Part shown: one piece after another, positions 2,754 to 48,526 of the stretch
How positions within the stretch are numbered: position 1 is the first letter of the stretch
Layout of the letters: each line of letters begins with the position of its first letter
NCBI RefSeq assembly: GCF_054482525.1
Contig: NZ_CM137006.1
Length of the DNA stretch: 64,000 bases
Direction: 5' to 3' (one strand)
Made by a program: the position numbers and the translations under genes
Notes under the pieces: model-generated
What the model saw: only the letters and a program-made list of their open reading frames with translations
Told to the model about the DNA's origin: nothing
Database searches by the model: none

Positions 2754-4853
2754 ATGAACCGAGAGCAAGCCCAACAACTGCTGCAGACTGCTTTGGCTAA
2801 CCCTGCTGCTGAATTTCGTGATGGTCAGTGGGAAGCCATTGATGCATTGGTTAATCGTCGTCAGAAACTACTGGTTGTACAGCGTACCGGCTGGGGTAAG
2901 AGCTCGGTTTATTTTATTAGTACTAAAATCTTCCGTGACCGCGAGATGGGGCCTACGATTATTGTATCGCCACTGCTTGCATTAATGCGTAACCAGATTG
3001 ATTCAGCGCAGCGTTTGGGAATAGTTGCCGAAACAATGAATTCGGCTAATAGGGAGGATTGGCAGGCTGTAACTCAACGAATTCTCAATAACCAAATAGA
3101 CTGTTTGCTCATTTCCCCAGAGCGGCTAGCAAATGATACCTTTATTGAGACGGTCCTTCAGCCCATTGCCGATCGAATCGCCCTAATGGTAATTGACGAA
3201 GCACACTGTATTTCAGATTGGGGTCATGATTTTCGTCCTGATTATCGCCGTATCGTAAATATCCTTCGTCAATTGCCCGCCAACACCCCAGTACTAGGTA
3301 CGACTGCAACTGCCAATAACCGAGTTGTTGACGATATCCAAGCCCAGCTTGGGGATATACAAATCCACCGAGGTCCTCTTACTCGCGAAAGCCTCGCTCT
3401 GCATACAATGTCTTTACCCGATCAGGCATCTCGTTTAGCTTGGCTCGCCCAAGTTATTCCGATGCTACATGGAACAGGCATTATTTACGCATTAACAGTT
3501 CGTGATGCCGAGCAGGTGGCAGAATGGTTGAGCATGCACGGTATAGTTGCCATGGCATACCACGGTAGCATCGAGGCTGAAGGTTTTGAGAACAGCAATG
3601 CTTACCGTCAGTACTTAGAAGAATTGTTACTTAACAACCAGCTTAAGGTTTTAGTAGCAACGACCGCGTTGGGTATGGGTTATGATAAACCTGATTTAAG
3701 TTTTGTAATCCATTACCAAGCTCCGAGTTCAATTGTTGCATACTACCAGCAGGTGGGTCGGGCTGGGCGCGGTATTGCTCATGCAACAGGTGTACTGATG
3801 TCGGGGATAGAAGATAACGACATCCATGATTTTTTCCGTGATTCTGCATTTCCATCGGAGGATCAAGTTAACGATATTCTTCGAGTGTTGGAAAATAATG
3901 ATGGTCTATCACTCCGCAACATCGAGGAAAAAACTAACCTACGCCACGGCCAGATTGAGAAAGTACTTAAGTTACTGAGTGTAGAAAATCCAGCCCCCAT
4001 CATTAAAAATGAAAATCGTTGGGTTAGGACCACAGTTCGCTATCAAATGGATCATGCCCGAATTGCTCATTTGACAGGACAACGTATTCAGGAATGGGAA
4101 GAGGTTCAAGCGTACCTTACCGACACTGGATGCAAAATGGCATTTCTACGTCGTTCTCTGGACGATCTCGACCCAACTCCATGTGGTAAATGCTCGTCCT
4201 GTATTGGTCAACCAATTATAAATCAAATCATTGACCCTGCTTTGGTACATCGTGCAGGGACTTTCCTAAAACATGCAGAAATGCCGATTACTCCAAAAGC
4301 TCAGGTAGCAGCTAATGCTTTTTTGCAATATGGCTTCAGCGGCAATTTGCCACAGCAGATTAGAGCACAAGAAGGTCGAGTGTTGTCTCGCTGGGGAGAT
4401 GCTGGTTGGGGACGGTTAGTAGCCGATAATAAACGTGCAGATCACTTTGATGATGAGCTAGTGGTTGCTATGGCCGAGATGATTCAGCAGCGTTGGCAAC
4501 CGAATCCAGCGCCACAATGGGTATGCTGTGTACCTTCACGCAATCATGTACAATTAGTCCCTGATTTCGCTCGCCGCTTGGCGGCATGTTTGAGGTTGCC
4601 TTTTTTCAATGCCATCAGCAAGGTTAGAGATAACCAACCTCAAAAGGGGCAACAAAACCGTTTCCATCAATGCCGCAATCTGGACGGTGCTTTTGAGATA
4701 AATCAACCTCTACCTAACACACCGGTTCTACTTGTAGATGACATTGTAGATTCAGGCTGGACGTTAACTGTCATCGCAGCACTCCTACAACGCGCAGGTA
4801 GTGGTAAAGTATACCCTGTTGCACTTGCTTCATCTTCGGTAAAAGACTCATGA
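2754..4853 (+). CDS. RecQ-family helicase fused to a C-terminal phosphoribosyltransferase-like (ComF-like) domain; ShosT-like candidate
   Basis: 699 aa ORF. N-terminal RecQ motifs (FRDGQWEAI, TGWGKSSVY Walker A, DEAHCISDWGHDFRPDY); C-terminus has a PRTase-type motif (VLLVDDIVDSGWT). RBS aaggag upstream. Confidence 0.75.
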   Translation: MNREQAQQLLQTALANPAAEFRDGQWEAIDALVNRRQKLLVVQRTGWGKSSVYFISTKIFRDREMGPTIIVSPLLALMRNQIDSAQRLGIVAETMNSANREDWQAVTQRILNNQIDCLLISPERLANDTFIETVLQPIADRIALMVIDEAHCISDWGHDFRPDYRRIVNILRQLPANTPVLGTTATANNRVVDDIQAQLGDIQIHRGPLTRESLALHTMSLPDQASRLAWLAQVIPMLHGTGIIYALTVRDAEQVAEWLSMHGIVAMAYHGSIEAEGFENSNAYRQYLEELLLNNQLKVLVATTALGMGYDKPDLSFVIHYQAPSSIVAYYQQVGRAGRGIAHATGVLMSGIEDNDIHDFFRDSAFPSEDQVNDILRVLENNDGLSLRNIEEKTNLRHGQIEKVLKLLSVENPAPIIKNENRWVRTTVRYQMDHARIAHLTGQRIQEWEEVQAYLTDTGCKMAFLRRSLDDLDPTPCGKCSSCIGQPIINQIIDPALVHRAGTFLKHAEMPITPKAQVAANAFLQYGFSGNLPQQIRAQEGRVLSRWGDAGWGRLVADNKRADHFDDELVVAMAEMIQQRWQPNPAPQWVCCVPSRNHVQLVPDFARRLAACLRLPFFNAISKVRDNQPQKGQQNRFHQCRNLDGAFEINQPLPNTPVLLVDDIVDSGWTLTVIAALLQRAGSGKVYPVALASSSVKDS

Positions 4854-6356: not shown

Positions 6357-7346
6357 TTATGTCTTTCTTTCAAGTGCAACTCCTAGATCCGCTGCCATTT
6401 TTTGGATTAGCCTCCAATCTAGCGGCCATTCTTTTTCTAAAGTAGATCTCCGTCTTTTGATTAACCAGTAAACGAAAATAACAACGCTTTGTTCAAAGAA
6501 ACTACTCCCTTCTTTGCCATCCTGAATTAGTAGTTCGAGCTCAGGAGTCTCTTCTATAAATTGATGTAATCTTTCTATCGTATCGGGTTTGATCACTTCT
6601 TTAAATGTATCTAGAATTAATAAAGTCGATTTTTGATTGTTTGGTTTATTCTTTGTTAAAGCTATGTAGATATTATCTAAAGTTCGCTGAATTCCTGCGT
6701 AACCATCAGATGCTGCGTTAATTGCTTTCGATACTGAACAGAAAAAATCATCCGTAGTTTCTATTAACGCCATGCTTTTTGCTACAGTTCTATGTATATC
6801 TGGTTCAACTATAGTTTTTGCTTTATATATGGCATCATGAGTTAACTCGGCATAGGCATGTTGTAATAAAGATCTAACCTGTATCTCACATGGAATGCCT
6901 TGTTCAATGATAACTCCATTATAATCAAAGGATTCTTTTGCAGTTACTATAAAATGTACGGATTGATACGTGAAAATTAATGGTGTATTTAATCTTTCTT
7001 CTTCGTAGTGTCTTGATGTCTTATAATGCCATTTATTACTACTTTTTATTATTTCACATATTTCATCTATATCTGAAGTAAGTAAAACGACAAACCTGAT
7101 GCCAACTTTATCTTCAATCTCTTGGTAGGGGTTTTTGTATGATTTTTCTTTTCGATGAAAAGCTTTATCGATTAGAGATGTCTTTTCTTTTATTCTCGGT
7201 GTCGCAGGTTGCTTGAGAAAGCTATTGAGGTCCCGCTCTTTATTTTCTGAGAGTTCTTTGCAAATATTTGAGACGACAAAATCTCCCCATGCTTTATACA
7301 TGGGTAGTTCTTTTTCCCAAAGTTGCGAAAACTCTAATTCATTCAT
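6357..7346 (-). CDS. RelA/SpoT-domain nucleotidyltransferase (alarmone-synthetase-like, stand-alone)
   Basis: 329 aa ORF. Synthetase-domain motifs GIRFVVLL, YQSVHFIV, EIQVRSLLQHAYAELTHD; no hydrolase or TGS/ACT region seen. Start ATG 8 nt after upstream stop. Confidence 0.65.
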   Translation of the reverse strand: MNELEFSQLWEKELPMYKAWGDFVVSNICKELSENKERDLNSFLKQPATPRIKEKTSLIDKAFHRKEKSYKNPYQEIEDKVGIRFVVLLTSDIDEICEIIKSSNKWHYKTSRHYEEERLNTPLIFTYQSVHFIVTAKESFDYNGVIIEQGIPCEIQVRSLLQHAYAELTHDAIYKAKTIVEPDIHRTVAKSMALIETTDDFFCSVSKAINAASDGYAGIQRTLDNIYIALTKNKPNNQKSTLLILDTFKEVIKPDTIERLHQFIEETPELELLIQDGKEGSSFFEQSVVIFVYWLIKRRRSTLEKEWPLDWRLIQKMAADLGVALERKT

Positions 7347-9011: not shown

Positions 9012-9175
9012 CATGGCTACCGCATTTGATGTGCTCAACAGCTTTGTATTGAGATACTTTTAACAATGTTGTATTTAACTAGCTGATACTATTAATTATA
9101 AATGAGAATCAGAGCAAAAACGAGCGGTAGGTAAGATATAGACCGAAAGCATATAAAACCATAAATATCAAATCA

Positions 9176-10378
9176 TTACACTACCGCATGTAAGATTCTA
9201 CGTACAGAGTGTAGATCAATCAAATAGTCTGAATACCACTGCATCATCTCTCTTCGCCCCTCCAGATATTGCGCATGGTTGTACGTCCCACGAATCGCAT
9301 TCTTATCGACATGCGCAAGCTGGGTTTCAATCCATGCCGTGTTGAACCCTTCCTCGTGCAAAATCGTACTCATCGTGTGACGGAAACTATGCCCCGTTAC
9401 CTTCCCCGTATACCCAATCCGTTTGAATACCTGATTAATACTCGCTTCACTCATCGTTTTACGTGGATCATTGCGCCCTGGGAACACCAAAGGATATTGC
9501 CCGGACATTACTTTGAGCTGTTGTACGATTTCTAGCGCTTGGGTAGAGAGGGGTACAAGATGGGGCCGTTTCATCTTCATACGCTCTGCAGGTATTTCCC
9601 ACACCGCTTTCTCAAGATCAAACTCACTCCAGAAAGCACCTCGAAGCTCGCCAGTACGAACTCCCGTAAGGATAAGCAGACGAGCGGCAAGAACAACTAA
9701 CGGGCTTCCTGTATAACCTGCGAGAGCTTTAAAGAAGTCTGGTAACTCCTCTACTGACAGGAAGGGATAATGCTTCGATTCATGCCCTGACATCGCGCTG
9801 GTTAGGTCCGCTGCAGGATTGTATTCCGCGCGACCTGTAACGATGGCATAACGAAAGACTTCGCTGCAGCGCTGGCGAACCTTCTTGGCCTTCTCTGTCG
9901 CGCCACGGCTTTCGATTCGACGCAGCACATTAAGCAGAACCAGCGGTTTGATTTCATTCACTGGCAGTTGGCCGATATAGGGGAAAATATCTTTATTGAA
10001 GGCTTCGATAATATCGGAGGCATAGCCTTCTGACCACCGGCTCACCTTAGTACCGTGCCACTCAAGCGCCACAGACTGGAACGTGTTGTTGAGCTGCACA
10101 TCGCGAACCAGCTTTTCTTCTTTCTTTGCGAAAGACGGGTCGATACCCTCGGCCAGCTTTTTCTTGGCTTCATCACGCAGAGCCCTCGCTTGTGCAAGGG
10201 AAACAGCCGGATAGACCCCAAAAGCCATACGCTTCTCTTTTCCATTGAAGCGATATTTCATTCGCCAGTATCGAGAACCAGAGGGAACGACTTCAAGATA
10301 CAAGCCAGCACCATCTGCCAGCTTATAGGCTTTCTCTTTGGGTTTAGCAGCGTCTACCTGTCGCGCATTAAGCTTCAT
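9176..10378 (-). CDS. int: P4-type tyrosine integrase (site-specific recombinase)
   Basis: ORF 9176..10417; likely start is the ATG at 10378 (MKLNARQVDAAKPKEKAYKLADGAGLYLEV...) with GGAG 9 nt upstream. Sits directly beside the tRNA-Thr 3' end. Confidence 0.85.
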   Translation of the reverse strand: MKLNARQVDAAKPKEKAYKLADGAGLYLEVVPSGSRYWRMKYRFNGKEKRMAFGVYPAVSLAQARALRDEAKKKLAEGIDPSFAKKEEKLVRDVQLNNTFQSVALEWHGTKVSRWSEGYASDIIEAFNKDIFPYIGQLPVNEIKPLVLLNVLRRIESRGATEKAKKVRQRCSEVFRYAIVTGRAEYNPAADLTSAMSGHESKHYPFLSVEELPDFFKALAGYTGSPLVVLAARLLILTGVRTGELRGAFWSEFDLEKAVWEIPAERMKMKRPHLVPLSTQALEIVQQLKVMSGQYPLVFPGRNDPRKTMSEASINQVFKRIGYTGKVTGHSFRHTMSTILHEEGFNTAWIETQLAHVDKNAIRGTYNHAQYLEGRREMMQWYSDYLIDLHSVRRILHAVV

Positions 10379-18509: not shown

Positions 18510-18898
18510 TTATCCTTCGATAAAAGCCATCCCTGTAAATGTCCGTCGCGGGTTGCCACGTTCAATTTGATGATGGAACATTCGCCACTGCGATTTCAGC
18601 GCCGCGCTATTTTCCTGTTGCTGTTGTTCCAGCTTCCAGGCAATCAGCAATCGCGCCAGCCGCTTGTTAGCATGCCCAGAAACCAGTTTTTGCGCCCATG
18701 ATGAGGCCGATACGGACTCGGACAAATCCACTGAATAGTGCCGCACCAACTTTCGCTTAATGCCCATGCGTTATCGCCATCCAGAGAAATCAGCGCCGAA
18801 CGCAGCGTGTCAGAGTAGCGGCCCGTTTCTGTTTCCAGCACCGTTACCGCGACGTCTTGCCGGGTAAAAACGGCCTGCGGAGAAGAACGCTGCGCCAA
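18510..18898 (-). pseudogene. prfH: peptide chain release factor H homologue remnant, split across two frames
   Basis: Two overlapping minus-strand ORFs (18510..18767 and 18644..18898) carry release-factor-like segments in different frames. Boundaries approximate. Confidence 0.45.
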
Positions 18899-19076
18899 TC
18901 GGGTAGCCGCGTCCGGGGTGTAAATCTGGCATCCCTACTACGCGCTGCATGTTGGGTAAATTTGCCGTGGTGTGTAATTGTTGGATCGCTAAACTCTCGA
19001 TCCACAGGCCATCAGATGCGATGGTAAATACCGCATCGGATAAGGGACGAATAGATTTGCCCATGTACCATCCCAT
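18810..19076 (-). pseudogene. ykfJ: RtcB-like RNA ligase N-terminal fragment (ykfJ-like remnant)
   Basis: 88 aa ORF containing an RtcB-type [18 protein letters not shown] motif; far too short for a full RtcB. Boundaries approximate. Confidence 0.4.
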
Positions 19077-19308
19077 TTATACTCGTCATACTTCAAGTTG
19101 CATGTACTGCGACTCGAATTATTTAGAGTATATAAATATAAAAATCAGGAAATGGCAGACGAATCCAGGGCAAGAAAAAAGAATTAATCCTGGAAAGGTC
19201 TGCAAAGAGTCATTGATAAAGGATTTGTCATGATTTACCTCCTTGCAGTTTGTGGAATAAGAAAACGCGCACATACCAGGCGGGTGTTATTTTCATTGCA
19301 AGCTGAAT

Positions 19309-19761
19309 TTAATGTTGCGGTTTATATCGCATAGAAAAATTAGTAAACCACGCTCCCCTGCATTCAACGCGCTGCTGCTTAACTGTCTGAAAACCATAAC
19401 GTTCAAAAAAGGGTTTTGCGGTTATGCTTGCGTCCACCGTAAGTTCGGATTCAGACTTAATCAAAGGTTTTAACAAAGCGCTGGCAACCCCACGGCGGGT
19501 GTATTCAGGGTCAACAAATAACATATCGATATAGTGTTCAATGCGGGAAATAAAACCAACCGGTTGTGCATTAATGATCGCAACCCATACTTGTGATTTC
19601 GCGAGTTTCTCCTTCCAGCGAGATTCGTCAATCTGCGCCCAGGCGGCAATTTGTTGTGGTGAATAATGCTGACTGGCGGTCATCGTAACCGCTCTAAGGA
19701 AAATAGCGCATAGTTGCTGAAAATCGCCAGGCTGATAGTTTCTTATTTGTATGTTATTCAT
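19309..19761 (-). CDS. yafP: GNAT-family acetyltransferase YafP
   Basis: 150 aa translation matches YafP; last gene of the dinB-yafNOP operon. Confidence 0.9.
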   Translation of the reverse strand: MNNIQIRNYQPGDFQQLCAIFLRAVTMTASQHYSPQQIAAWAQIDESRWKEKLAKSQVWVAIINAQPVGFISRIEHYIDMLFVDPEYTRRGVASALLKPLIKSESELTVDASITAKPFFERYGFQTVKQQRVECRGAWFTNFSMRYKPQH

Positions 19762-19770
19762 AATATAAAT

Positions 19771-20169
19771 TCAAAAACGCATGCGAAACGCTTCTGCCAT
19801 TTTCCCAATTTTATGCATTTGGTTGTTATCTCGAGCCAGTTTATGAGGTTCAGGTTTCAGAATGGCAATGAGCAACCATGCTTGCTCATCAAACGCACCC
19901 TGACAATATACCAAATGCGCTTCGTCATTCGTTCTGCTGAATTGGCGCAACTGTGGCGGAAATGGATTATTCACATTTGCCAGATGAATATGAGCAACTC
20001 GCTCAAATTTGATTAATGGCCAGGTAAACGAGTCGTCGTAGAGTGCATCGCGACCAAATATATCTGGCAAAACACCGTCACGCTTATAGGAAATAAAATC
20101 CGCCGTTAACGCATCAAGTTCCTCTGCTGTAAGTTGCAGGCAAATAAGTTTTGTTTTGAATACCCGCAT
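19771..20169 (-). CDS. yafO: YafO toxin (ribosome-dependent mRNA interferase)
   Basis: 132 aa translation matches YafO; adjacent to yafN. Confidence 0.9.
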   Translation of the reverse strand: MRVFKTKLICLQLTAEELDALTADFISYKRDGVLPDIFGRDALYDDSFTWPLIKFERVAHIHLANVNNPFPPQLRQFSRTNDEAHLVYCQGAFDEQAWLLIAILKPEPHKLARDNNQMHKIGKMAEAFRMRF

Positions 20170-20171
20170 CC

Positions 20172-20465
20172 TTATTCCTTAAAGTCATTGAAATCATCAT
20201 CCGTCATATCATTAAGATATTGTTCAGCGCGGCGTGTAATTTCCTCTAATCTTGCGGCACTCGGACGGAAGCGCGCCTTAACCAGTTTTTTCTCCTCTTG
20301 TTCAGCAAGCATGTCCATTAACGCTTCGAATGCGCTGGCACTTAAGAGATATCCTGCGGGGCGATTATTAGAAAGAACCGCAACTGGTTGATCAATAAAG
20401 TATTTAGCTGGGTTTTTACGTAACTCAGTGATATTGACCGATTTTTCAGCGAGAATTCGATGCAT
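20172..20465 (-). CDS. yafN: YafN antitoxin
   Basis: 97 aa translation matches YafN (MHRILAEKSVNITELRKNPAKYF...). Confidence 0.9.
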   Translation of the reverse strand: MHRILAEKSVNITELRKNPAKYFIDQPVAVLSNNRPAGYLLSASAFEALMDMLAEQEEKKLVKARFRPSAARLEEITRRAEQYLNDMTDDDFNDFKE

Positions 20466-20516
20466 ACAGTGATCCCCTCATAATAATGCACATCAGAATA
20501 GACATAATAGTATACA

Positions 20517-21572
20517 TCATAATCCCAGCACCAGTTGTCTTTCCATTTGAGGGTCAAGCAACGTCACATGCAGCCCCACCAGTCGCACACCGCGCCCGCC
20601 GCGGCGTTCATCCCAGGTTTTACGCGCGGTGGCGATTAGATCAGCTTTATTCAGCCGCGGCCAGACGTGCTCCTGAGTGGTTTGCTGAAAATCATCAAAC
20701 TTTAATTTCACCCCCTGGCGAGCAATCAGTAAATCAGGTTTCACCTTTGCCAGACGGCGTTCAAGTTCCGGATACAGCCGCTCGATAATCGCTTCACATT
20801 CAGACCAGTGATGAATATCTTCCGCCATCGTGCGTTCCACGCCGACGGATTTTCGCAACCGTTCGCTGTTAACATCGCGTTCGTCAATCCCCTGACTACG
20901 CTCCCACAAAATGCGGCCAAATTTGCCAAAGCGTTTAAGCAGCATCACCAGATCACACTTTTGTACATCACCGCAGGTCCGCAGCCCCATCGCTTCCAGT
21001 TTTGCCGCCGAGACTTTGCCGACGCCGGGGATTTTTGCCAGTGGTAAGGTTTGTAAAAATGCCGGAACTTCTGCCGGCGTAATCACAAACTGGCCGTTGG
21101 GTTTATTCATGTCGGAGGCGATTTTGGCGAGAAACTTTACTGGTGCCACGCCCGCAGACGCCGTCAGTTGCAGCTCGCTGAAAATCGTCTGGCGGATTTC
21201 CTGGGCGATGAGGGTCGCAGAACCGTGGCAATGGACGCTATCAGTGACATCGAGATAGGCTTCATCCAGTGACAACGGTTCAATACGCGAGGTGTAGCGC
21301 GAGAAGATTTCACGGATATGATTTGAGGCTTCTTTGTAGGCGTCAAAGCGCCCCGGAAGCAAGGTGAGATGTGGGCATAATTTGAGCGCCATCCCTGTCG
21401 GCATAGCGCTACGTACGCCAAATTTACGCGCGGGATAATTGGCGGTGCTGATCACCCCCCGACGTTCGCGGCTGCCGCCAATAGCAATAGGGATATCGCG
21501 CAGGGCGGGATTGTCGCGCATCTCCACCGCTGCGAAAAAGCAGTCCATATCCACATGAATGATTTTACGCAT
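20517..21572 (-). CDS. dinB: DNA polymerase IV (translesion polymerase)
   Basis: 351 aa translation matches DinB ([33 protein letters not shown]...). Confidence 0.95.
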
Positions 21573-21588
21573 TGCTCACCTCTCAACA

Positions 21589-21604
21589 CTGGTAAAGTAT
21601 ACAG
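21589..21604 (-). promoter_or_regulatory. LexA (SOS) box upstream of dinB: CTGTATACTTTACCAG
   Basis: Reverse complement of 21589..21604 gives a CTG-N10-CAG motif matching the LexA consensus, about 17 bp upstream of the dinB start. Confidence 0.8.
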
Positions 21605-21642
21605 TGATTTCAGGGTTTGAGAAATGCGTAAAGATTCAGCAT

Positions 21643-22430
21643 CTAGCGCGTTCGCTGCGAATGCACCTGCTGCTTATCCAGCTTTTGCACCAGCGGCTGC
21701 ACCACTTTATCCCCATGCTGACCAAAGTATTGATACAGCGTATCGGACGCACTTTTGGTCAGCACCATAATCTCAATGCGTCGGTTGCCCGCGCTTTGCG
21801 GATTTTTCGCGTCCAGCAGCATCTGGTCCGCCATCGCGCTCACCTGCATCACTTTATCTTCCGGCATTCCGGCCTCTTCCAGCACCCGACGAGCCGAAAG
21901 CGCGCGATCGCCCGAAAGGTTCCAGTTGTTGTAGATATTGTTTTTGTAGGCCATCGCATCGGTATGCCCGGTAATAATAATTTTGTTATCGAGCGAGTCG
22001 AACACTGGCGCGAGCTCCACCAGCAAAGTTTTAAAGAACGGCATAATCTGTGCGCTGCCGCGTTCAAACATATTGCGGTTCTGGTCATCTTTAATCAGCA
22101 CGCGCAGTCCCTGGGGAACAATCTCCATCTCCAGATTCGCTTCCATATGTGCATCACGGGCAATGGTGTTGATACTGGTCGCCAGCTCGCCAAGCTCAGT
22201 GGCTGATTTCTTCTTCAGCAGCGCCGTTTTCTCATTGACGTCACGCGCTTTTTTCTCCGTCTCTTCCGGCACCGCCACGGTGGCAGGTTTTGGCGGATGA
22301 GACGGGCTGATTTTATTTAACGGCGACAACCCGCCGCCATTGAAAATCGACTGCCCGTGCAGCGCGGCGATAATGCTTTCACGCTCGGATTTACTGACGC
22401 TGTTGACAATCAACTTTATCGTCGTCACCA
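21643..22430 (-). pseudogene. lafU: lateral flagellar MotB-like motor protein, 5'-truncated remnant
   Basis: ORF 21643..22533 has an OmpA-like MotB C-terminal domain but no N-terminal TM segment; 5' end overlaps lfhA remnant. Boundary approximate. Confidence 0.6.
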
Positions 22431-24112
22431 AAGGGGCCGAGCGTATTTCCGAGGTTTCTGCCCGCTTTACCTTAGACGCGATGCCCGGTAAACAGATGGC
22501 GATTGACGCCGATCTTAACGCTGGGTTGATCAACCAGGCGCAGGCGCAAACCCGGCGTAAAGATGTTGCCAGCGAGGCCGATTTCTACGGCGCGATGGAC
22601 GGGGCATCGAAGTTTGTGCGCGGGGACGCCATCGCCGGGATGATGATTCTGGCGATCAACCTGATCGGCGGCGTCTGTATCGGCATCTTCAAATACAACC
22701 TGAGCGCCGACGCCGCCTTCCAGCAGTATGTGCTGATGACCATCGGCGACGGGCTGGTGGCGCAGATCCCGTCCCTGCTGCTCTCCACCGCGGCGGCAAT
22801 TATCGTCACCCGCGTCAGCGACAATGGCGATATCGCCCATGACGTGCGCCACCAGCTGCTGGCAAGCCCGTCGGTGCTCTACACCGCCACCGGGATCATG
22901 TTTGTGCTGGCGGTGGTGCCGGGGATGCCGCATCTGCCATTTTTGCTGTTCAGCGCCCTGCTGGGTTTTACCGGCTGGCGGATGAGCAAACGCCCGCAGG
23001 CGGCGGAGGCGGAGGAGAAAAGCCTCGAAACGCTGACCCGCACCATCACCGAAACCAGCGAGCAACAGGTCAGTTGGGAGACTATTCCGCTGATCGAACC
23101 CATCAGTTTAAGCCTCGGTTACAAACTGGTGGCGCTGGTCGATAAAGCGCAGGGTAACCCACTCACCCAGCGTATTCGCGGCGTGCGGCAAGTGATATCC
23201 GACGGCAACGGCGTGCTGCTGCCGGAGATCCGTATTCGGGAAAACTTCCGCCTCAAGCCCAACCAGTACGCCATATTCATCAACGGCATTAAGGCCGATG
23301 AAGCGGATATTCCGGCGGATAAACTGATGGCCCTGCCCTCCAGCGAAACCTACGGCGAGATTGACGGCGTGCTGGGGAACGACCCGGCGTACGGGATGCC
23401 GGTCACCTGGATTCAGCCTGCGCAGAAAGCGAAGGCGCTGAATATGGGGTATCAGGTGATCGACAGCGCCAGCGTGATTGCCACCCATGTGAACAAGATT
23501 GTCCGCAGCTATATTCCTGATTTGTTTAACTATGACGATATTACTCAGCTGCATAACCGTTTGTCGTCGATGGCACCGCGACTGGCGGAAGATTTGAGCG
23601 CGGCGCTCAATTACAGCCAGTTGCTGAAAGTGTACCGCGCGCTGCTGACCGAAGGCGTTTCCCTGCGCGATATCGTCACTATCGCCACCGTGCTGGTCGC
23701 CAGTAGCACAGTGACCAAAGATCATATCCTGCTGGCGGCCGATGTGCGCCTGGCATTGCGGCGCAGCATTACCCATCCGTTCGTTCGCAAGCAGGAGCTG
23801 GCGGTGTATACGCTGAATAATGAACTGGAAAATCTGCTGACCAACGTGGTGAATCAGGCGCAACAGGGCGGGAAAGTGATGCTCGACAGCGTGCCGGTCG
23901 ATCCGAATATGCTCAACCAGTTCCAGAGTACGATGCCGCAGGTAAAAGAGCAGATGAAAGCGGCGGGGAAAGACCCGGTGCTGCTGGTGCCGCCGCAGTT
24001 GCGTCCTTTGCTGGCGCGTTATGCAAGGTTGTTTGCGCCGGGGTTGCATGTGCTGTCGTATAACGAAGTGCCGGACGAGCTGGAGTTGAAGATTATGGGG
24101 GCGTTGAGTTGA
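22400..24112 (+). pseudogene. lfhA: lateral flagellar export protein FlhA homologue, 5'-truncated remnant
   Basis: ORF 22340..24112; FlhA-like sequence begins around INFIVVTKGAERISEVSARFTLDAMPGKQMAIDADLNAG, so roughly the first 130 aa are missing. Boundary approximate. Confidence 0.6.
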
Positions 24113-24142
24113 TGGGGGAGACTATATAAGGTCTCGGACTGT

Positions 24143-24230
24143 CCCCTCGCCCCTTTGGGGAGAGGGTTAGGGTGAGGGGAAAGTGCGCGCTGAGTCCCTC
24201 ACCCCGGCCCTCTCCCCAAAGGGGCGAGGG
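24143..24230. repeat. inverted pair of a ~35-bp GC-rich palindromic unit (REP/BoxC-like intergenic repeat)
   Basis: 24143..24178 is the reverse complement of 24196..24230 apart from 2-3 nt; a related unit recurs at 26879..26916. Confidence 0.6.
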
Positions 24231-24273
24231 AGAAAAACGTGTACGACTTTAACTTTTTCGCAGTATTGCCGTC

Positions 24274-25032
24274 CTACAAAATCGTCTCTTCCGTCAAAAT
24301 CCTGCGCGCGCCTAAAAAATGATCCTGCCAGAAAGGTTCAGCTAACCGACTTACCCGAATGGTTTCCCCCGTGCGCGGCGACTCGATAAACTGACCGTCT
24401 CCCAGATACACGCCCATATGATCGGCAATCTCGCGGCTGTGGATATGGAAAAACAGCAAATCTCCCCGGCGCAGGTCGTTGTTCGCCACAATCGTTGCCC
24501 GATGGTAGTGATACATCTCATTGGCCGTGCGCGGGAGCTTCGCCTCGAGGATCTTGTTGTAGGCATAAAAAACCAACCCGCTACAGTCGAAGCCTTGATC
24601 GGGCCGCGTGCCGCCCCAGACGTAAGGCTTGCCAAGCTGCTGCTCCAGGCGGTAAATCGCCACTTCGGTGATGTTGTGTAGATGGTCGCTGCTTAAGAAA
24701 TGGTTGTTCTCCGCCAGCGCCTGCCAGCGTCTGTCACTTGCCTTGAGCGGCGCAGGAAACCATTCTGGATGCTGTTTTATCTGTTCGCGGTTGTGCTGGC
24801 GCAGCGCCTTTCTGCTTTCGGCATTGCCTTCCACAATATAGCTGGCCTGTTTTTTCAGATGGGTTTGGTACTGTTTTAATAAACGCGCACGGTTTTGCAT
24901 CCGCTGGCGGGCGGCGTAGCTGAAAGAGATATGTGATGTGGTGGCGCTGGCGAGTAAAGGGAGCAAAACGCATAACGAAAACACGCCTGGATGCAGAAAT
25001 CTGCCGAGCAAGAACGAAGACATGAAGGACAT
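24274..25032 (-). CDS. yafL: NlpC/P60-family peptidase YafL
   Basis: 252 aa with signal peptide and NlpC/P60 motifs (KPYVWGGTRPDQGFDCSGLVFYAY ... ADHMGVYLGDGQFIES). Confidence 0.85.
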   Translation of the reverse strand: MSFMSSFLLGRFLHPGVFSLCVLLPLLASATTSHISFSYAARQRMQNRARLLKQYQTHLKKQASYIVEGNAESRKALRQHNREQIKQHPEWFPAPLKASDRRWQALAENNHFLSSDHLHNITEVAIYRLEQQLGKPYVWGGTRPDQGFDCSGLVFYAYNKILEAKLPRTANEMYHYHRATIVANNDLRRGDLLFFHIHSREIADHMGVYLGDGQFIESPRTGETIRVSRLAEPFWQDHFLGARRILTEETIL

Positions 25033-25323
25033 AAACCGGCTGAATGAAGGTGAGAATTTTAAAAGACCAGAGGAGTAAACGGGATTATTAATTGCTTATT
25101 TGCATATTACTATTGAGGTTTCATAATCTTAGGAAATAAATGATACATGCGCTTTTCGGACTATTGAAAACTGCCCCTGTGCTAAATTTGTAAACCCTGC
25201 GCCGACAGGCTTGCGTAAAACTCTTTTGGTGATAATGTGAGCCTTCCCAATCCAGACTATTCCGATTTGGGATCCATTTTGCCGTCCTGGCGTGTGTAAC
25301 CGTTTTATCAAGGAATAAGCAGT

Positions 25324-30855: not shown

Positions 30856-31626
30856 GTGCCTGGTTTGAAGATTACGCTTTTGCAGCAACCACTGGTGTGG
30901 ATGGATGGTCCTGCCAACCTGCGCCATTTTGATCGTCAACTGGAAGGTATTACCGGACGCGATGTGATCGTTCTACCGGAGATGTTTACCAGCGGCTTTG
31001 CCATGGAAGCGGCAGCTTCGTCGCTAGCACAAGATGACGTAGTGAACTGGATGACAGCCAAAGCGCAGCAGTGCAATGCGCTGATTGCAGGCAGTGTTGC
31101 ATTACAAACGGAGTCTGGTTCGGTTAACCGCTTTTTGCTGGTTGAGCCGGGCGGCACGGTACATTTTTATGATAAGCGTCATCTGTTCCGCATGGCAGAT
31201 GAGCATCTGCATTATAAAGCGGGCAATGAGCGAGTGATTGTGGAATGGCGCGGCTGGCGTATTTTACCGCTGGTGTGCTACGACTTACGTTTTCCGGTGT
31301 GGTCGCGCAATCTCAACGATTATGACCTCGCCATCTACGTTGCCAACTGGCCTGCCCCGCGCTCTCTGCACTGGCAGGCATTGCTGACGGCCCGTGCGAT
31401 TGAGAATCAGGCGTATGTGGCGGGATGTAATCGCGTCGGCAGCGATGGCAACGGCTGCCATTATCGCGGTGACAGCCGGGTGATTAATCCACAAGGTGAG
31501 ATTATCGCTACTGCCGACGCTCATCAGGCAACGCGCATTGATGCGGAACTGTCGATGATGGCGTTGCGGGAGTATAGAGAAAAGTTTCCGGCATGGCGGG
31601 ATGCGGATGAGTTTAGGTTGTGGTGA
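30856..31626 (+). CDS. yafV: C-N hydrolase (omega-amidase) YafV
   Basis: ORF 30847..31626; YafV-like sequence begins at the GTG at 30856 (PGLKITLLQQPLVWMDGPANL...). Confidence 0.9.
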   Translation: MPGLKITLLQQPLVWMDGPANLRHFDRQLEGITGRDVIVLPEMFTSGFAMEAAASSLAQDDVVNWMTAKAQQCNALIAGSVALQTESGSVNRFLLVEPGGTVHFYDKRHLFRMADEHLHYKAGNERVIVEWRGWRILPLVCYDLRFPVWSRNLNDYDLAIYVANWPAPRSLHWQALLTARAIENQAYVAGCNRVGSDGNGCHYRGDSRVINPQGEIIATADAHQATRIDAELSMMALREYREKFPAWRDADEFRLW

Positions 31627-45025: not shown

Positions 45026-45544
45026 TTATGCTTCCAGCGGTGCGCGCCAGTCGTCGGCACCGGAGGTGCCAGACTTGACGTGTTCCCACTCTATTTTGCG
45101 GTAGGCCAGTGAAACTTCGAGCAACTGGGTGAACTCGCGTTTCGCCGGATCCTGGCAATGCGGCATATGCAGTTTCATATCGACAATCGTCGAATCGGTC
45201 AGGCGGGTGGTGAAATAATGCTCCTGTTTGCCTTCCACAGAGGTACGCCACCAGTGAAGTTCAGTGGTTGGCAGCATTTCGCCGGAGGCCAGTGCGTTGT
45301 ACATCAGCGGAACAGCTTTGTTCAGCGCCACGGTAAAAATGAACGGCTTGTGAGCACGCTGACCCGCAGGCTGGCCGGACTGAGGATCGGTCGGGACAGT
45401 AACGTTATGCAGGAATTCCTGCACCAGCATCTCGTCTTCGTGCCCCTGCACATAGATGTTGCCGACAGAATCAGCGGTAAATGCACCTGCAGTAATATTT
45501 CCCTGGGTCTGACCTGTGATGGAGATATAACACGGTGTTGGCAT
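45026..45544 (-). CDS. hcp: type VI secretion tube protein Hcp (TssD)
   Basis: 172 aa translation with typical Hcp sequence (MPTPCYISITGQTQGNITAGAFTADSVGNIYVQGHEDEMLVQEF...). Confidence 0.9.
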   Translation of the reverse strand: MPTPCYISITGQTQGNITAGAFTADSVGNIYVQGHEDEMLVQEFLHNVTVPTDPQSGQPAGQRAHKPFIFTVALNKAVPLMYNALASGEMLPTTELHWWRTSVEGKQEHYFTTRLTDSTIVDMKLHMPHCQDPAKREFTQLLEVSLAYRKIEWEHVKSGTSGADDWRAPLEA

Positions 45545-46240
45545 TTGTAAACTCCTTGTTAACGTGGTTAATTACTACTTACAATGACCTGCCGTTAATC
45601 CCAGACAGGCAGATGCAGCTCACTTCACGGAACCGCATCATTTTTCAGTATTTTTTACATACAAACCGAGCTAGAATTTACGGTTGTCGTAAAAACTATT
45701 TTTAAAATCATTAAATCTCTTATTCAGCAATAAGTTAATAATATATATCTGGATAACCATACCCAACTATTCAAAGTCCGTATTGCCTCCATAAAATGGC
45801 CAAAGCTGAATCATGAATAAATATTGTATTTATCCTTTCTGAATTATCATTTTGATAATTTTTGAGATATTCCTTAAAAATACCCACTTAATCAATCACA
45901 AAACAAATATATAAACAAGCAATCATCAGATTAGCTTATGTTTAATGAAATTATTGTATAATTCAATAAGTTACATAAAAGCTCTATATTTAAATTATTG
46001 CCATAATACACCTGACGCGAATTGCACAGGTTCACACAATCTATTTAACGCTTGCAGAATACCCCTCTTTACGATCGATAAAAAGTCCTTTTCTTATTTA
46101 TTTTGAAGCGTAGAATGCGGGGTGATGAAGGAGTGGTGATTTTATTTTCACCGCCATTATGGCGGCATTGCCGATATTTTTTTGCGGTACAAATATGCCG
46201 TGTTCATGGCCTGTACGAGATAACATGACGGATCACTTTT
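45545..46240. promoter_or_regulatory. AT-rich divergent hcp / tssB control region with a Fur-box-like motif near 45841-45860
   Basis: About 700 bp without convincing ORFs between divergent hcp and tssB; gaattatcattttgataatt resembles the Fur consensus. Confidence 0.35.
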
Positions 46241-46741
46241 ATGAGCAAAAAATTTGAAGGCAGCGTCGCGCCTCGCGAGCGTATAAATATATCCTATGTC
46301 CCGAAGACGGACGGCCAGACGGCTGAAGTAGAGCTTCCGCTTAACATGCTCGTTGTCGGCGATACCGGAAATACGCAGGAGACATCCCCACTGGATGAAC
46401 GTCAGGCAGTTTCCGTTAACAAGCACAATTTCGGTGCAGTAATGGCTGAAGCAGCCATTGGCCTCAATTTTACCGTCCCCGCCACGCTGAAGGGAAGCAC
46501 AACGGACGATGAACTGAATGTGGCGCTGAATATCAAGTCACTGGATGATTTTTCACCGGACAGCGTGGCCCGGCAGGTTCCGGAAGTGAATAAATTGCTG
46601 GAACTGCGTGAAGCACTGACTGCGCTGAAGGGGCCGATGGGCAACCTTCCGGCATTCCGTACCCAGCTCCAGGCATTGCTGGAAAATGAGGAGTCCCGCG
46701 AGCAGTTGCTTAAAGAAATCGGCCAGGTGAGTGGGAAATAA
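46241..46741 (+). CDS. tssB: T6SS contractile sheath small subunit TssB (VipA)
   Basis: 166 aa translation typical of TssB (MSKKFEGSVAPRERINISYVPKTDGQTAEVELPLNMLVVGD...). Confidence 0.9.
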   Translation: MSKKFEGSVAPRERINISYVPKTDGQTAEVELPLNMLVVGDTGNTQETSPLDERQAVSVNKHNFGAVMAEAAIGLNFTVPATLKGSTTDDELNVALNIKSLDDFSPDSVARQVPEVNKLLELREALTALKGPMGNLPAFRTQLQALLENEESREQLLKEIGQVSGK

Positions 46742-46775
46742 CCACCACTATTTCATTAAACAGGGTTATCCAGAC

Positions 46776-46982
46776 ATGGCGGCACACAAAAATATCTCCG
46801 GGAAACACCCCCTCTCTGACGAAGACATTTTGCAGGCGGTTTACCGGGTATGTTTCAGCCCGTCCGGTGAAATCAACCGGGATGGCGTGGATGCGCTGAT
46901 TACAACACTGGATCGCCGTATCAGTGATCTATTGGATGAGATTATCCATCTTTGTGAGTTTCAGCAGAGCGCGCCGTACTGA
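46776..46982 (+). CDS. hypothetical small protein between tssB and tssC (coding status uncertain)
   Basis: ORF 46731..46982 with an internal ATG at 46776; occupies an unusually long tssB-tssC spacer. No domain recognised. Confidence 0.25.
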   Translation: MAAHKNISGKHPLSDEDILQAVYRVCFSPSGEINRDGVDALITTLDRRISDLLDEIIHLCEFQQSAPY

Positions 46983-47050
46983 CGGCGCGTACTTCACTGA
47001 CGGCGAAAACCCGGTTTCAGAAACACAGCTAAAACAGAAGGATTTTCAGT

Positions 47051-48526
47051 ATGTCTTTACAGGAAGAGGAACTCGTTTCCAGTCATGCCGGGCAGACTGA
47101 TCAGGCGTCGTCGCTGCTTGATCAAATCATGGCACAGACCCGTATTCAGCCCGGTTCGGAAGGTTATGACGTTGCCCGCCAGGGTGTGACAGCCTTTATT
47201 GCCAGCATCCTGCAATCCACTGCATCTGCCGAACCGGTCAATAAACTGGCCGTGGACAGCATGATTGCAGATATAGATGAACGCATCAGCCGCCAGATGG
47301 ATGTCATCATCCATGCGCCTGCCTTTCAGCAGGTCGAGTCGTTCTGGCGCTCACTGAAAACCATGGTGGATCGCGTTGATTTCCGTGAAAACATCAAGGT
47401 CAACGTGCTTCATGTCACGAAGCAGGAACTTCTGGAAGACTTTGAATTTGCCCCAGAAATTATTCAGTCCGGATTTTATAAACACGTTTATTCGTCCGGA
47501 TTCGGACAGTTTGGTGGTGAACCCATCGCTGCCGTGCTGGGCGCTTATGAGTTCAAAAATACCGCTCCTGACATGAAACTGCTGCAATACGTCAGTGCCG
47601 TGGGCGCAATGGCGCACGCACCGTTCCTCTCCTCCGTTTCCCCGGAGTTTATGGGGCTGAACTCGTGGACCGAACTGCCTAATATCAAAGATCTTTATGC
47701 CATCTTTGAAGGTCCGGCCTACACCAAATGGCGCGCCCTGCGTGACTCGGAAGATTCGCGCTATTTAGGGCTTACGGCACCCCGCTTCCTGCTTCGCCAG
47801 CCTTATTCACCAACAGATAACCCTGTTAAGAACTTTAACTATCACGAAGATGTCAGCCGGAACCACGAAGATTATCTGTGGGGTAATACGGCCTGGATGC
47901 TGGCGTGCAATGTCGCAGACAGTTTTGCCAAATACCGCTGGTGTCCAAATATCATCGGTCCGCAAAGCGGCGGCGCAGTGAAAGATCTGCCGGTGCATCT
48001 GTTCGAAACGATGGGTCAGATTCAGGCCAAAATCCCAACCGAGGTGCTGGTCACCGATCGCCGCGAATTTGAACTGGCTGAAGAGGGTTTTATCACCCTT
48101 ACCATGCGTAAAGACTCTGATAATGCAGCCTTTTTCTCTGCAAACTCGGTACAAAAACCGAAGCACTTTCCGGGCAAAGACGCAGAAACCAACTATAAGT
48201 TGGGTACGCAGCTTCCTTATCTCTTCATCATCAATCGGTTAGCGCACTACATCAAGGTGTTGCAGCGTGAACAACTGGGGTCATGGAAAGAAAGGAGCGA
48301 CTTAGAGAGGGAGCTTAATACCTGGATCCGTCAGTATGTTGCCGACCAGGAAAACCCGCCTGCGGACGTGCGCAGCCGCAAGCCTCTGCGTGCTGCCAGA
48401 GTTGAGGTTATGGATGTGGAAGGCGAACCCGGCTGGTACCAGGTCGCGCTGAGCGTGCGGCCCCATTTTAAATTTATGGGGGCAAACTTTGAGCTATCCC
48501 TGGTTGGCCGGTTAGACAGGGAGTAA
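47051..48526 (+). CDS. tssC: T6SS contractile sheath large subunit TssC (VipB)
   Basis: 491 aa translation typical of TssC. Confidence 0.9.
   Translation: MSLQEEELVSSHAGQTDQASSLLDQIMAQTRIQPGSEGYDVARQGVTAFIASILQSTASAEPVNKLAVDSMIADIDERISRQMDVIIHAPAFQQVESFWRSLKTMVDRVDFRENIKVNVLHVTKQELLEDFEFAPEIIQSGFYKHVYSSGFGQFGGEPIAAVLGAYEFKNTAPDMKLLQYVSAVGAMAHAPFLSSVSPEFMGLNSWTELPNIKDLYAIFEGPAYTKWRALRDSEDSRYLGLTAPRFLLRQPYSPTDNPVKNFNYHEDVSRNHEDYLWGNTAWMLACNVADSFAKYRWCPNIIGPQSGGAVKDLPVHLFETMGQIQAKIPTEVLVTDRREFELAEEGFITLTMRKDSDNAAFFSANSVQKPKHFPGKDAETNYKLGTQLPYLFIINRLAHYIKVLQREQLGSWKERSDLERELNTWIRQYVADQENPPADVRSRKPLRAARVEVMDVEGEPGWYQVALSVRPHFKFMGANFELSLVGRLDRE

Follow-up and report, generated by a model that had tools for sequence, protein, structure and literature searches.

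The region at positions 21643-24112 of a 64,000-nucleotide stretch of DNA (NCBI RefSeq assembly GCF_054482525.1, contig NZ_CM137006.1; the whole stretch is referred to here as the window) is a K-12-type deletion allele of the lateral-flagellar (Flag-2) locus, in which the gene cluster between nucleotide 155 of lafU and nucleotide 390 of lfhA is absent. That the window comes from a Flag-2-negative strain is thereby confirmed, and a pseudogene pair of this kind is textbook, routine knowledge. Our follow-up revealed a broader pattern. In the tested species Escherichia coli, Kluyvera ascorbata and Atlantibacter subterranea, a 35-36 kb organelle cluster is either there or missing, the junction being one and the same, species-specific flanks are common to both states within a species, and the remaining parts of the two genes evolve as working genes do. 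Junction identity across lineages together with the absence of decay is not accounted for by a one-off accident. We put at about even the chance that the same join originated more than once from intact loci already resident, in three or more tested species and probably in at least seven lineages, so that the locus would be a hot spot of precise loss.

According to the listing of open reading frames (ORFs) and the sequence itself, two ORFs lie between dinB and yafL, one on the minus strand with its end at 21643 and one on the plus strand with its end at 24112, and they overlap mechanically around 22340-22533. The features of the locus are as follows:

20517-21572, minus strand: dinB, which flanks the locus on its lafU side and serves as its context marker
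21643-22411, minus strand: lafU' remnant, consisting of the last base of codon 52 and codons 53-307 plus stop of a lateral-flagellar MotB-like stator gene
22409-22411, no strand: deletion junction, a 3-nt overlap (ATC) common to both parents
22409-24112, plus strand: lfhA' remnant, consisting of codons 131-697 plus stop of a lateral-flagellar FlhA (FHIPEP export-gate) gene
24274-25032, minus strand: yafL, gene of an NlpC/P60 peptidase; flanks the locus on its lfhA side

A first-pass annotation had described a minus-strand MotB-like gene without its N-terminal transmembrane (TM) region and a plus-strand FlhA-like gene without roughly its first 130 amino acids, meeting at about 22400-22430, and had attributed them to the K-12-type deletion of Flag-2. 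We aligned the region to a Flag-2-positive genome, using the locus of E. coli strain EC10 (L001) as the intact reference, and this description was borne out throughout, including both end coordinates: the two genes are truncated and neither is full length. In EC10, lafU (9014-9937, 307 aa) and lfhA (45520-47613, 697 aa) are separated by ~40 flagellar genes. Window positions 21400-22411 are collinear with the segment from dinB to lafU, and positions 22409-24115 with lfhA. The lafU' remnant corresponds to EC10 positions 9014-9782 (96% identity) and lfhA' to 45910-47613 (96.5% identity), in both cases collinearly and free of gaps. The first lfhA-derived base is 22409 and the last lafU-derived base is 22411, so the two parts meet head to head and no Flag-2 gene separates them. 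The absent sequence amounts to 36,130 bp of the EC10 locus and to 35,268 bp when compared with strain MY732 (L012). A degenerate version of the junction pattern matched once in the window and never in 100 shuffles. That there was no deletion at all, the ORFs being full-length, naturally short motB and flhA paralogues, has a probability close to nil; nothing favors it beyond the fact that the ORFs are open, whereas each aligns collinearly with the 3' part of its intact counterpart, lafU or lfhA, and in ~24% of E. coli 35-36 kb of flagellar genes lie between these two.

Both truncations remove parts essential to the products. The 155 nt missing from lafU encode residues 1-52, that is, the start codon, a basic tail at the N-terminus and the membrane helix ...WKVAFADFTLAMMALFMTLW. 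The helix contains Asp39, the counterpart of the proton-binding Asp of MotB. Intact LafU matches both MotB_plug and OmpA in Pfam. The remnant product matches OmpA alone (PF00691, about 21790-22071, E = 1.3e-14) and shows no MotB_plug or TM region, the MotB_plug match being gone because residues 1-52 are deleted. Measured against functional MotB/LafU proteins, the remnant therefore has the C-terminal OmpA-like peptidoglycan-binding domain and is without the N-terminal TM helix with its Asp and the plug segment. From lfhA, exactly 390 nt (130 codons) are missing, including the start codon and the first N-terminal TM helices. Intact LfhA covers positions 1-656 of the 657 of the FHIPEP profile, while the match of the plus-strand product starts only at position 99 (99-656), showing that the N-terminal part is missing; compared with functional FlhA/FHIPEP proteins, the complete N-terminal membrane domain is thus absent. 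Since both genes are the last genes of outward-reading operons, the remnants have also lost their operon promoters, and a consensus-based promoter scan for the remnants gave nothing convincing (4 weak sites versus 1.8 ± 1.2 expected). Owing to the loss of start codons, operon promoters and N-terminal membrane segments, the remnants cannot build a stator or an export gate.

The same join, ...GTTGACAATCAACTTTAT..., is present in E. coli K-12 MG1655, where a single alignment spans window positions 19107-24107 with one gap that lies far from the junction. The MG1655 annotation lists the pieces as the pseudogenes lfhA (b0229) and lafU (b0230). This K-12 scar, also called fhiA-mbhA (lfhA'-lafU'), agrees with that of the window in its genes, their orientation, the place between dinB and yafL and, to the nucleotide, the junction; it differs in that the window alleles have diverged by ~4% and that rayT and dinJ-yafQ are not found beside the scar of the window. 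The remnants are ~96% identical to those of K-12, and dinB, yafN, yafO and yafP 97.3-99.0%. Seven further scar-bearing E. coli, sampled across the range of identity, have the pieces at identical offsets without any indel. Sequence contiguous across the junction was found in 4,071 of 5,426 complete E. coli genomes (~75%), which makes the scar the majority state of the species; in the same set, the ends of the cluster were detected in ~1,311 (lafT/lafU-5') and ~1,290 genomes (lfhB/lfhA-5').

The fhiA/mbhA (lfhA/lafU) scar itself is already known and published, and its description in E. coli and Shigella is attributed to Ren et al. 2005 (PMC6993521, PMC3032704). In the sequence type 131 (ST131) strain S250, fragments of 'about 1700 bp' and '769 bp' have been reported (PMC5369007). 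The sections used here of De Maayer et al. 2020 (PMC6993521) report a 'flag-2 deleted' state for 531 Enterobacterales strains, and those of Carter et al. 2024 (PMC11420993) report a Flag-2 scar in E. albertii. In these sections, the deleted state likewise consists of a truncated lfhA and a truncated lafU in species that also have intact loci, and the loss is treated as an en bloc deletion between direct repeats. In the portions of the Flag-2 literature consulted, we found no statement on junction identity across genera or on the non-decay of the remnants, which may in part have been noted by Ren et al. 2005.

We scanned one genome per prokaryotic species with the junction pattern, in which all wobble positions were degenerate. 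Matches were obtained in E. coli, E. albertii, Citrobacter sp. MGH106 and K. ascorbata, as well as in two E. coli-like contigs of metagenome-assembled genomes (MAGs). The latter, assigned to a 'Clostridiales bacterium' (L016) and a 'Collinsella sp.' (L017), contain the E. coli scar, ~95% identical to the window, and are most likely mis-binned E. coli DNA. Protein searches revealed that species or genera with truncated forms of LafU or LfhA also have full-length ones, and at the DNA level the homologous join was also present in C. amalonaticus, which with MGH106 makes two deep Citrobacter lineages, A. subterranea, one further lineage (L032) and two Cedecea-like genomes. In every lineage the join lies between residues 52 and 53 of LafU and residues 130 and 131 of LfhA, with AT(C/T) as its core; in Atlantibacter, the overlap relative to the conspecific intact lafU and lfhA is only AT. 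Scar and intact states coexist within E. coli, E. albertii, K. ascorbata, C. amalonaticus, Atlantibacter and Cedecea. The chromosomal neighbors vary between lineages, but an NlpC/P60 gene adjoins the locus in every lineage examined. This yafL-like gene is located at the lfhA or the lafU end in Escherichia, Citrobacter, Kluyvera, Atlantibacter, L032 and the Cedecea-like genomes (L023-L026, L031-L035), and since it is adjacent even where all other neighbors differ, it may belong to the Flag-2 module.

The remnants show next to no sign of decay. Across the 2.47 kb of nine E. coli scar alleles we found no stop and no indel. The ratio of non-synonymous to synonymous substitution rates (dN/dS) among these alleles is 0.04 for lafU' and 0.03 for lfhA', as low as among intact alleles, and the dS values of both genes within E. 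coli are high (0.13-0.22), in scar and intact alleles alike. Variants confined to scar alleles are overwhelmingly synonymous, the singletons of this kind in lfhA' comprising 5 non-synonymous and 59 synonymous changes. In E. coli, two Citrobacter lineages and Kluyvera alike, lfhA' comprises exactly 567 codons, and between genera dN/dS amounts to 0.02-0.055 for lfhA' and 0.05-0.10 for lafU' at a saturated dS of 1-2.2. The sole decayed remnant among the scars examined is that of the E. albertii type strain NBRC 107761, in which a frameshift (L014, about 4660-4732) splits lfhA' into two ORFs while lafU' is still open. Apart from this frameshift, the marks of a decaying pseudogene pair, namely frameshifts or stops and a dN/dS near 1, were absent. 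In this respect, which goes beyond the first-pass annotation, the scar does not resemble a decaying one-off relic.

Open frames in E. coli, Citrobacter, Kluyvera, Atlantibacter and Cedecea-like genomes and the very low dN/dS would also be expected if the truncated genes were functional, as a periplasm-less OmpA-domain protein and an FlhA-like protein with a shortened N-terminus, each under purifying selection of its own that would keep an old scar from decaying. A 261-aa LafU coding sequence (CDS) called by the NCBI Prokaryotic Genome Annotation Pipeline (PGAP) points in the same direction. Nevertheless, we regard functional remnants as unlikely. Start codon, promoter and essential membrane segments are lost in both genes, and no convincing replacement promoter was seen. 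The called starts vary, from a TTG far upstream in E. coli to a GTG inside lfhA in Citrobacter and Kluyvera, with a stop just upstream in Citrobacter. Moreover, lfhA' is frameshifted in the E. albertii type strain, a different truncation is tolerated in E. coli WB61 (see below), and the identity of scar and intact alleles of one species beside the junction would be left unexplained.

This identity was seen when 60 nt on each side of the junction were compared. Within a species, scar and intact alleles differ at 0-1 positions, on both sides in E. coli and Atlantibacter and on the lafU side in K. ascorbata (three species, 1-3 alleles per class). The lfhA-side comparison thus covers E. coli and Atlantibacter only; for K. 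ascorbata, a protein search clustered at 90% identity gave no match >93% to a full-length LfhA. Between lineages, in contrast, the lafU side has 8-31 differences and the lfhA side 7-13. We also considered a shared 'core haplotype' at the junction as the trace of one spreading scar, but there is none between genera, some of the differences lying 1-4 nt from the junction. Within E. coli, the first 69 nt of lafU beside the junction are invariant in 12 of 12 alleles.

The E. coli scar alleles do not form a group of their own and diverge from one another by ~5%. Three intact strains, taken in even steps from the list of matches, each have a scar-bearing counterpart whose lfhA part differs at less than 1 per 1000 positions. 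In ST131, the flanks of SE15 (scar) and JJ1886 (intact) are identical at 6559 of 6559 and 4809 of 4810 positions up to the junction, and ECOR29 and MY732 are likewise close relatives with clean flanks whose one difference is the cluster. Such clean flanks of close pairs do not separate de novo loss from exchange between near-identical strains.

What the junction-proximal sequence can tell depends on how it may be exchanged. Ordinary double-crossover recombination should be unable to move junction-proximal variants between the scar and intact classes, because the homology between them stops at the junction, and events that flip the state of a strain would carry the donor's junction-proximal sequence along. 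With a single old deletion, class-specific differences close to the junction would be expected. None were seen, and scars arising from resident intact alleles once the lineages had separated, and with them a repeated origin of the join, are therefore favored; the alternative would be an unusual conversion ending exactly at the junction.

A single ancient deletion, preceding the split of Escherichia, Citrobacter, Kluyvera, Atlantibacter and Cedecea and kept since then as a presence/absence polymorphism, is the main rival reading and in our judgment less likely. It could have been maintained, for example, by niche- or frequency-dependent selection on a costly surface organelle; exchange with conspecific intact alleles would have kept the remnants 'fresh', and scar and cluster would have been swapped by homologous recombination. 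A comparable case is the trans-species polymorphism of surface-structure loci, as in the O-antigen clusters common to E. coli and Salmonella. As at Flag-2, alternative states of that locus coexist in related species and are exchanged via conserved flanks; at Flag-2, however, one of the states consists of an empty site whose internal junction is fixed, rather than of an alternative set of genes. An identical junction everywhere is precisely what a single origin predicts, and the independent deletion in WB61 does have a different one. The coexistence of both states in the six groups named above and the Flag-2 'insertion' inferred within ST131 (PMC5369007) fit as well. On the other hand, the polymorphism would have to survive many speciation events, and scar and intact alleles would have to exchange sequence to within 1-4 nt of the junction with no homology on the far side, which standard double-crossover conversion cannot achieve. 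In addition, as ~75% of E. coli are in the scar state, a certain amount of neutral decay would be expected, and none was seen.

As to how the join was made, it probably arose by illegitimate end-joining or slippage on an overlap of 2-3 nt rather than by homologous or recombinase-mediated recombination, since the break regions share only ATC or AT, show no extended similarity and no recombinase domain was present in the ORFs scanned. Extended homology as the cause of the deletion was rejected: local alignment of ±150 nt around the breaks scored 11, compared to 9.9 ± 1.3 for shuffles. With the two break points placed in register, 15 of 25 bases match. By Pfam, no recombinase domain was detected in eight ORFs of the cluster, mainly those without a specific flagellar annotation, two of which had no Pfam match at all, and the annotations of four intact loci list no recombinase or integrase gene in or beside the cluster. 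RayT, encoded beside lfhA, was considered as a recombinase and dropped, as it is absent from the window and from the other genera.

The break points in E. coli have some structural features. The lafU break falls in the loop of a hairpin with a 9-bp stem, of which there are 13 in 38.6 kb (0.43% of positions), and the lfhA break falls within the 12-bp palindrome TGATGATCATCA. Both are conserved in three intact E. coli alleles and in Atlantibacter. As the hairpin is not conserved in K. ascorbata, we treat a hot spot determined by hairpin and palindrome as a weak lead only.

These features, together with the precise, lineage-independent junction, its constant AT core and the 'clean' presence or absence between near-identical strains, are also what an excisable and integrable island would show, with a site-specific recombinase acting on attachment (att)-like sites in lafU and lfhA, a 2-nt AT core as in serine recombinases, and the scar as the empty attB. 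We consider such an island very improbable, because no recombinase gene was found in or next to the cluster in the four annotated intact loci, the neighbors differ between lineages, conserved dyad-symmetric sites appear to be lacking (only the 2-3 nt core, AT or ATC, is constant across lineages, and the hairpin is not conserved in K. ascorbata), and no circular form or attP-type junction is known.

E. coli WB61 (NZ_CP020025.1) carries the independent deletion of Flag-2 mentioned above, the only clearly independent one found. As in the window, a 5'-truncated lafU is joined to a 5'-truncated lfhA, but the junction (L020, 2572-2579) is another one, with 7-9 bp of microhomology, (G)ATGCCCGG. Relative to the K-12-type scar, the lafU remnant of WB61 is 72 nt longer and its lfhA remnant about 64-73 nt shorter. 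Such variants are rare, as only 13 of 1,324 matching genomes contained the lafT/lafU-5' probe in partial form only.

Under a repeated origin of the join, the cluster would be lost time and again at the same join from a resident intact locus, and either the scar allele or the intact cluster would then be passed from strain to strain by homologous recombination, with the remnants serving as homology arms. Each scar would be young, which is why the remnants would still resemble constrained genes. We are somewhat more reserved, at slightly less than even, about the wider claim that the nucleotide-exact excision of 35-40 kb took place independently in Escherichia, Citrobacter, Kluyvera, Atlantibacter and Cedecea-like genomes; this would imply a conserved, sequence- or structure-directed mechanism of loss (or of loss and regain), by which scars are continually regenerated from intact alleles.

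Several points weigh against repeated loss at one join. The conspecific comparisons rest on the small samples given above, and several sites more distant from the junction do distinguish the scar alleles of K. ascorbata from the intact ones. In K. ascorbata, moreover, the hairpin is broken despite the same junction. The junction of WB61 has the better microhomology, as expected for random events. We know of no mechanism that would repeatedly select the same pair of nucleotides 35-36 kb apart on an overlap of 2-3 nt. Finally, in the ST131 literature the polymorphism is interpreted as Flag-2 having been gained (PMC5369007), which fits an exchange by homologous recombination.

The junction also affects the annotation of the region. 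Two ORFs extend across it:

21643-22428, minus strand: chimeric 261-aa ORF, composed of a GTG start and 5 codons of antisense lfhA followed by LafU residues 53-307
22340-24112, plus strand: mechanical 590-aa ORF, composed of a TTG start and 23 codons of antisense lafU in frame with LfhA residues 131-697

The stretch of the window is 100% identical to that of E. coli SCU-102, for which RefSeq gives a 261-aa 'LafU' CDS and an FlhA pseudogene 'missing N-terminus'. PGAP labels the 261-aa ORF as an intact 'putative lateral flagellar export/assembly protein LafU', and the corresponding protein cluster (P0028) has 6,260 member sequences. As read from the sequence, the wobble positions of the sense and antisense frames coincide at the junction, which accounts for the long antisense extensions; the upstream extension of the 590-aa ORF is not conserved in other genera. 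We regard the 261-aa 'LafU' CDS as an annotation by-product of the junction and thus as a systematic artefact, a widespread one given that RefSeq lists it as intact for thousands of genomes of E. coli.

Further variation was observed in the neighborhood. In the intergenic region between lfhA' and yafL, a palindromic repeat rich in GC lies at window positions 24125-24250 (…CCCCTCGCCCCTTTGGGGAGAGGGTTAGGGTGAGGGG…). Segments of it occur many times per genome, a query containing the repeat matching at a median of 6 and a maximum of 15 places per genome, and an exact 39-nt copy is found on a plasmid; other copies lie in intergenic regions inside intact Flag-2 (EC10 locus, about 24000-24130 and 31340-31490). 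It may be a repeat of the BoxC type. Compared with K-12 (L003), window positions 24113-25323 are without rayT, the gene of a transposase associated with repetitive extragenic palindromes (REP), between lfhA' and yafL; they are likewise without the toxin-antitoxin pair dinJ-yafQ, which K-12 has between yafL and dpaA. In other strains, hicAB occupies the position of rayT. Because the content of rayT, dinJ-yafQ and hicAB differs between strains, the lfhA-distal border is a variable spot. A second K-12-like scar is located at about 18510-19064, where prfH is frameshifted and N-terminally truncated and the gene of an RtcB-family ligase is a fragment. It corresponds to the K-12 pseudogenes ykfJ/prfH, and both genes are intact in EC10, MY732, ECOR29, SE15 and JJ1886.

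A junction that is identical from genus to genus, species-specific flanks that the two states have in common and the absence of decay together form a pattern that a specialist would probably not expect. The Flag-2 locus would be either a hot spot of precise loss or a very old balanced polymorphism that has been kept homogeneous right up to the breakpoint, and either would be of interest. Both readings bear on the population-level switching of costly surface organelles in bacteria.

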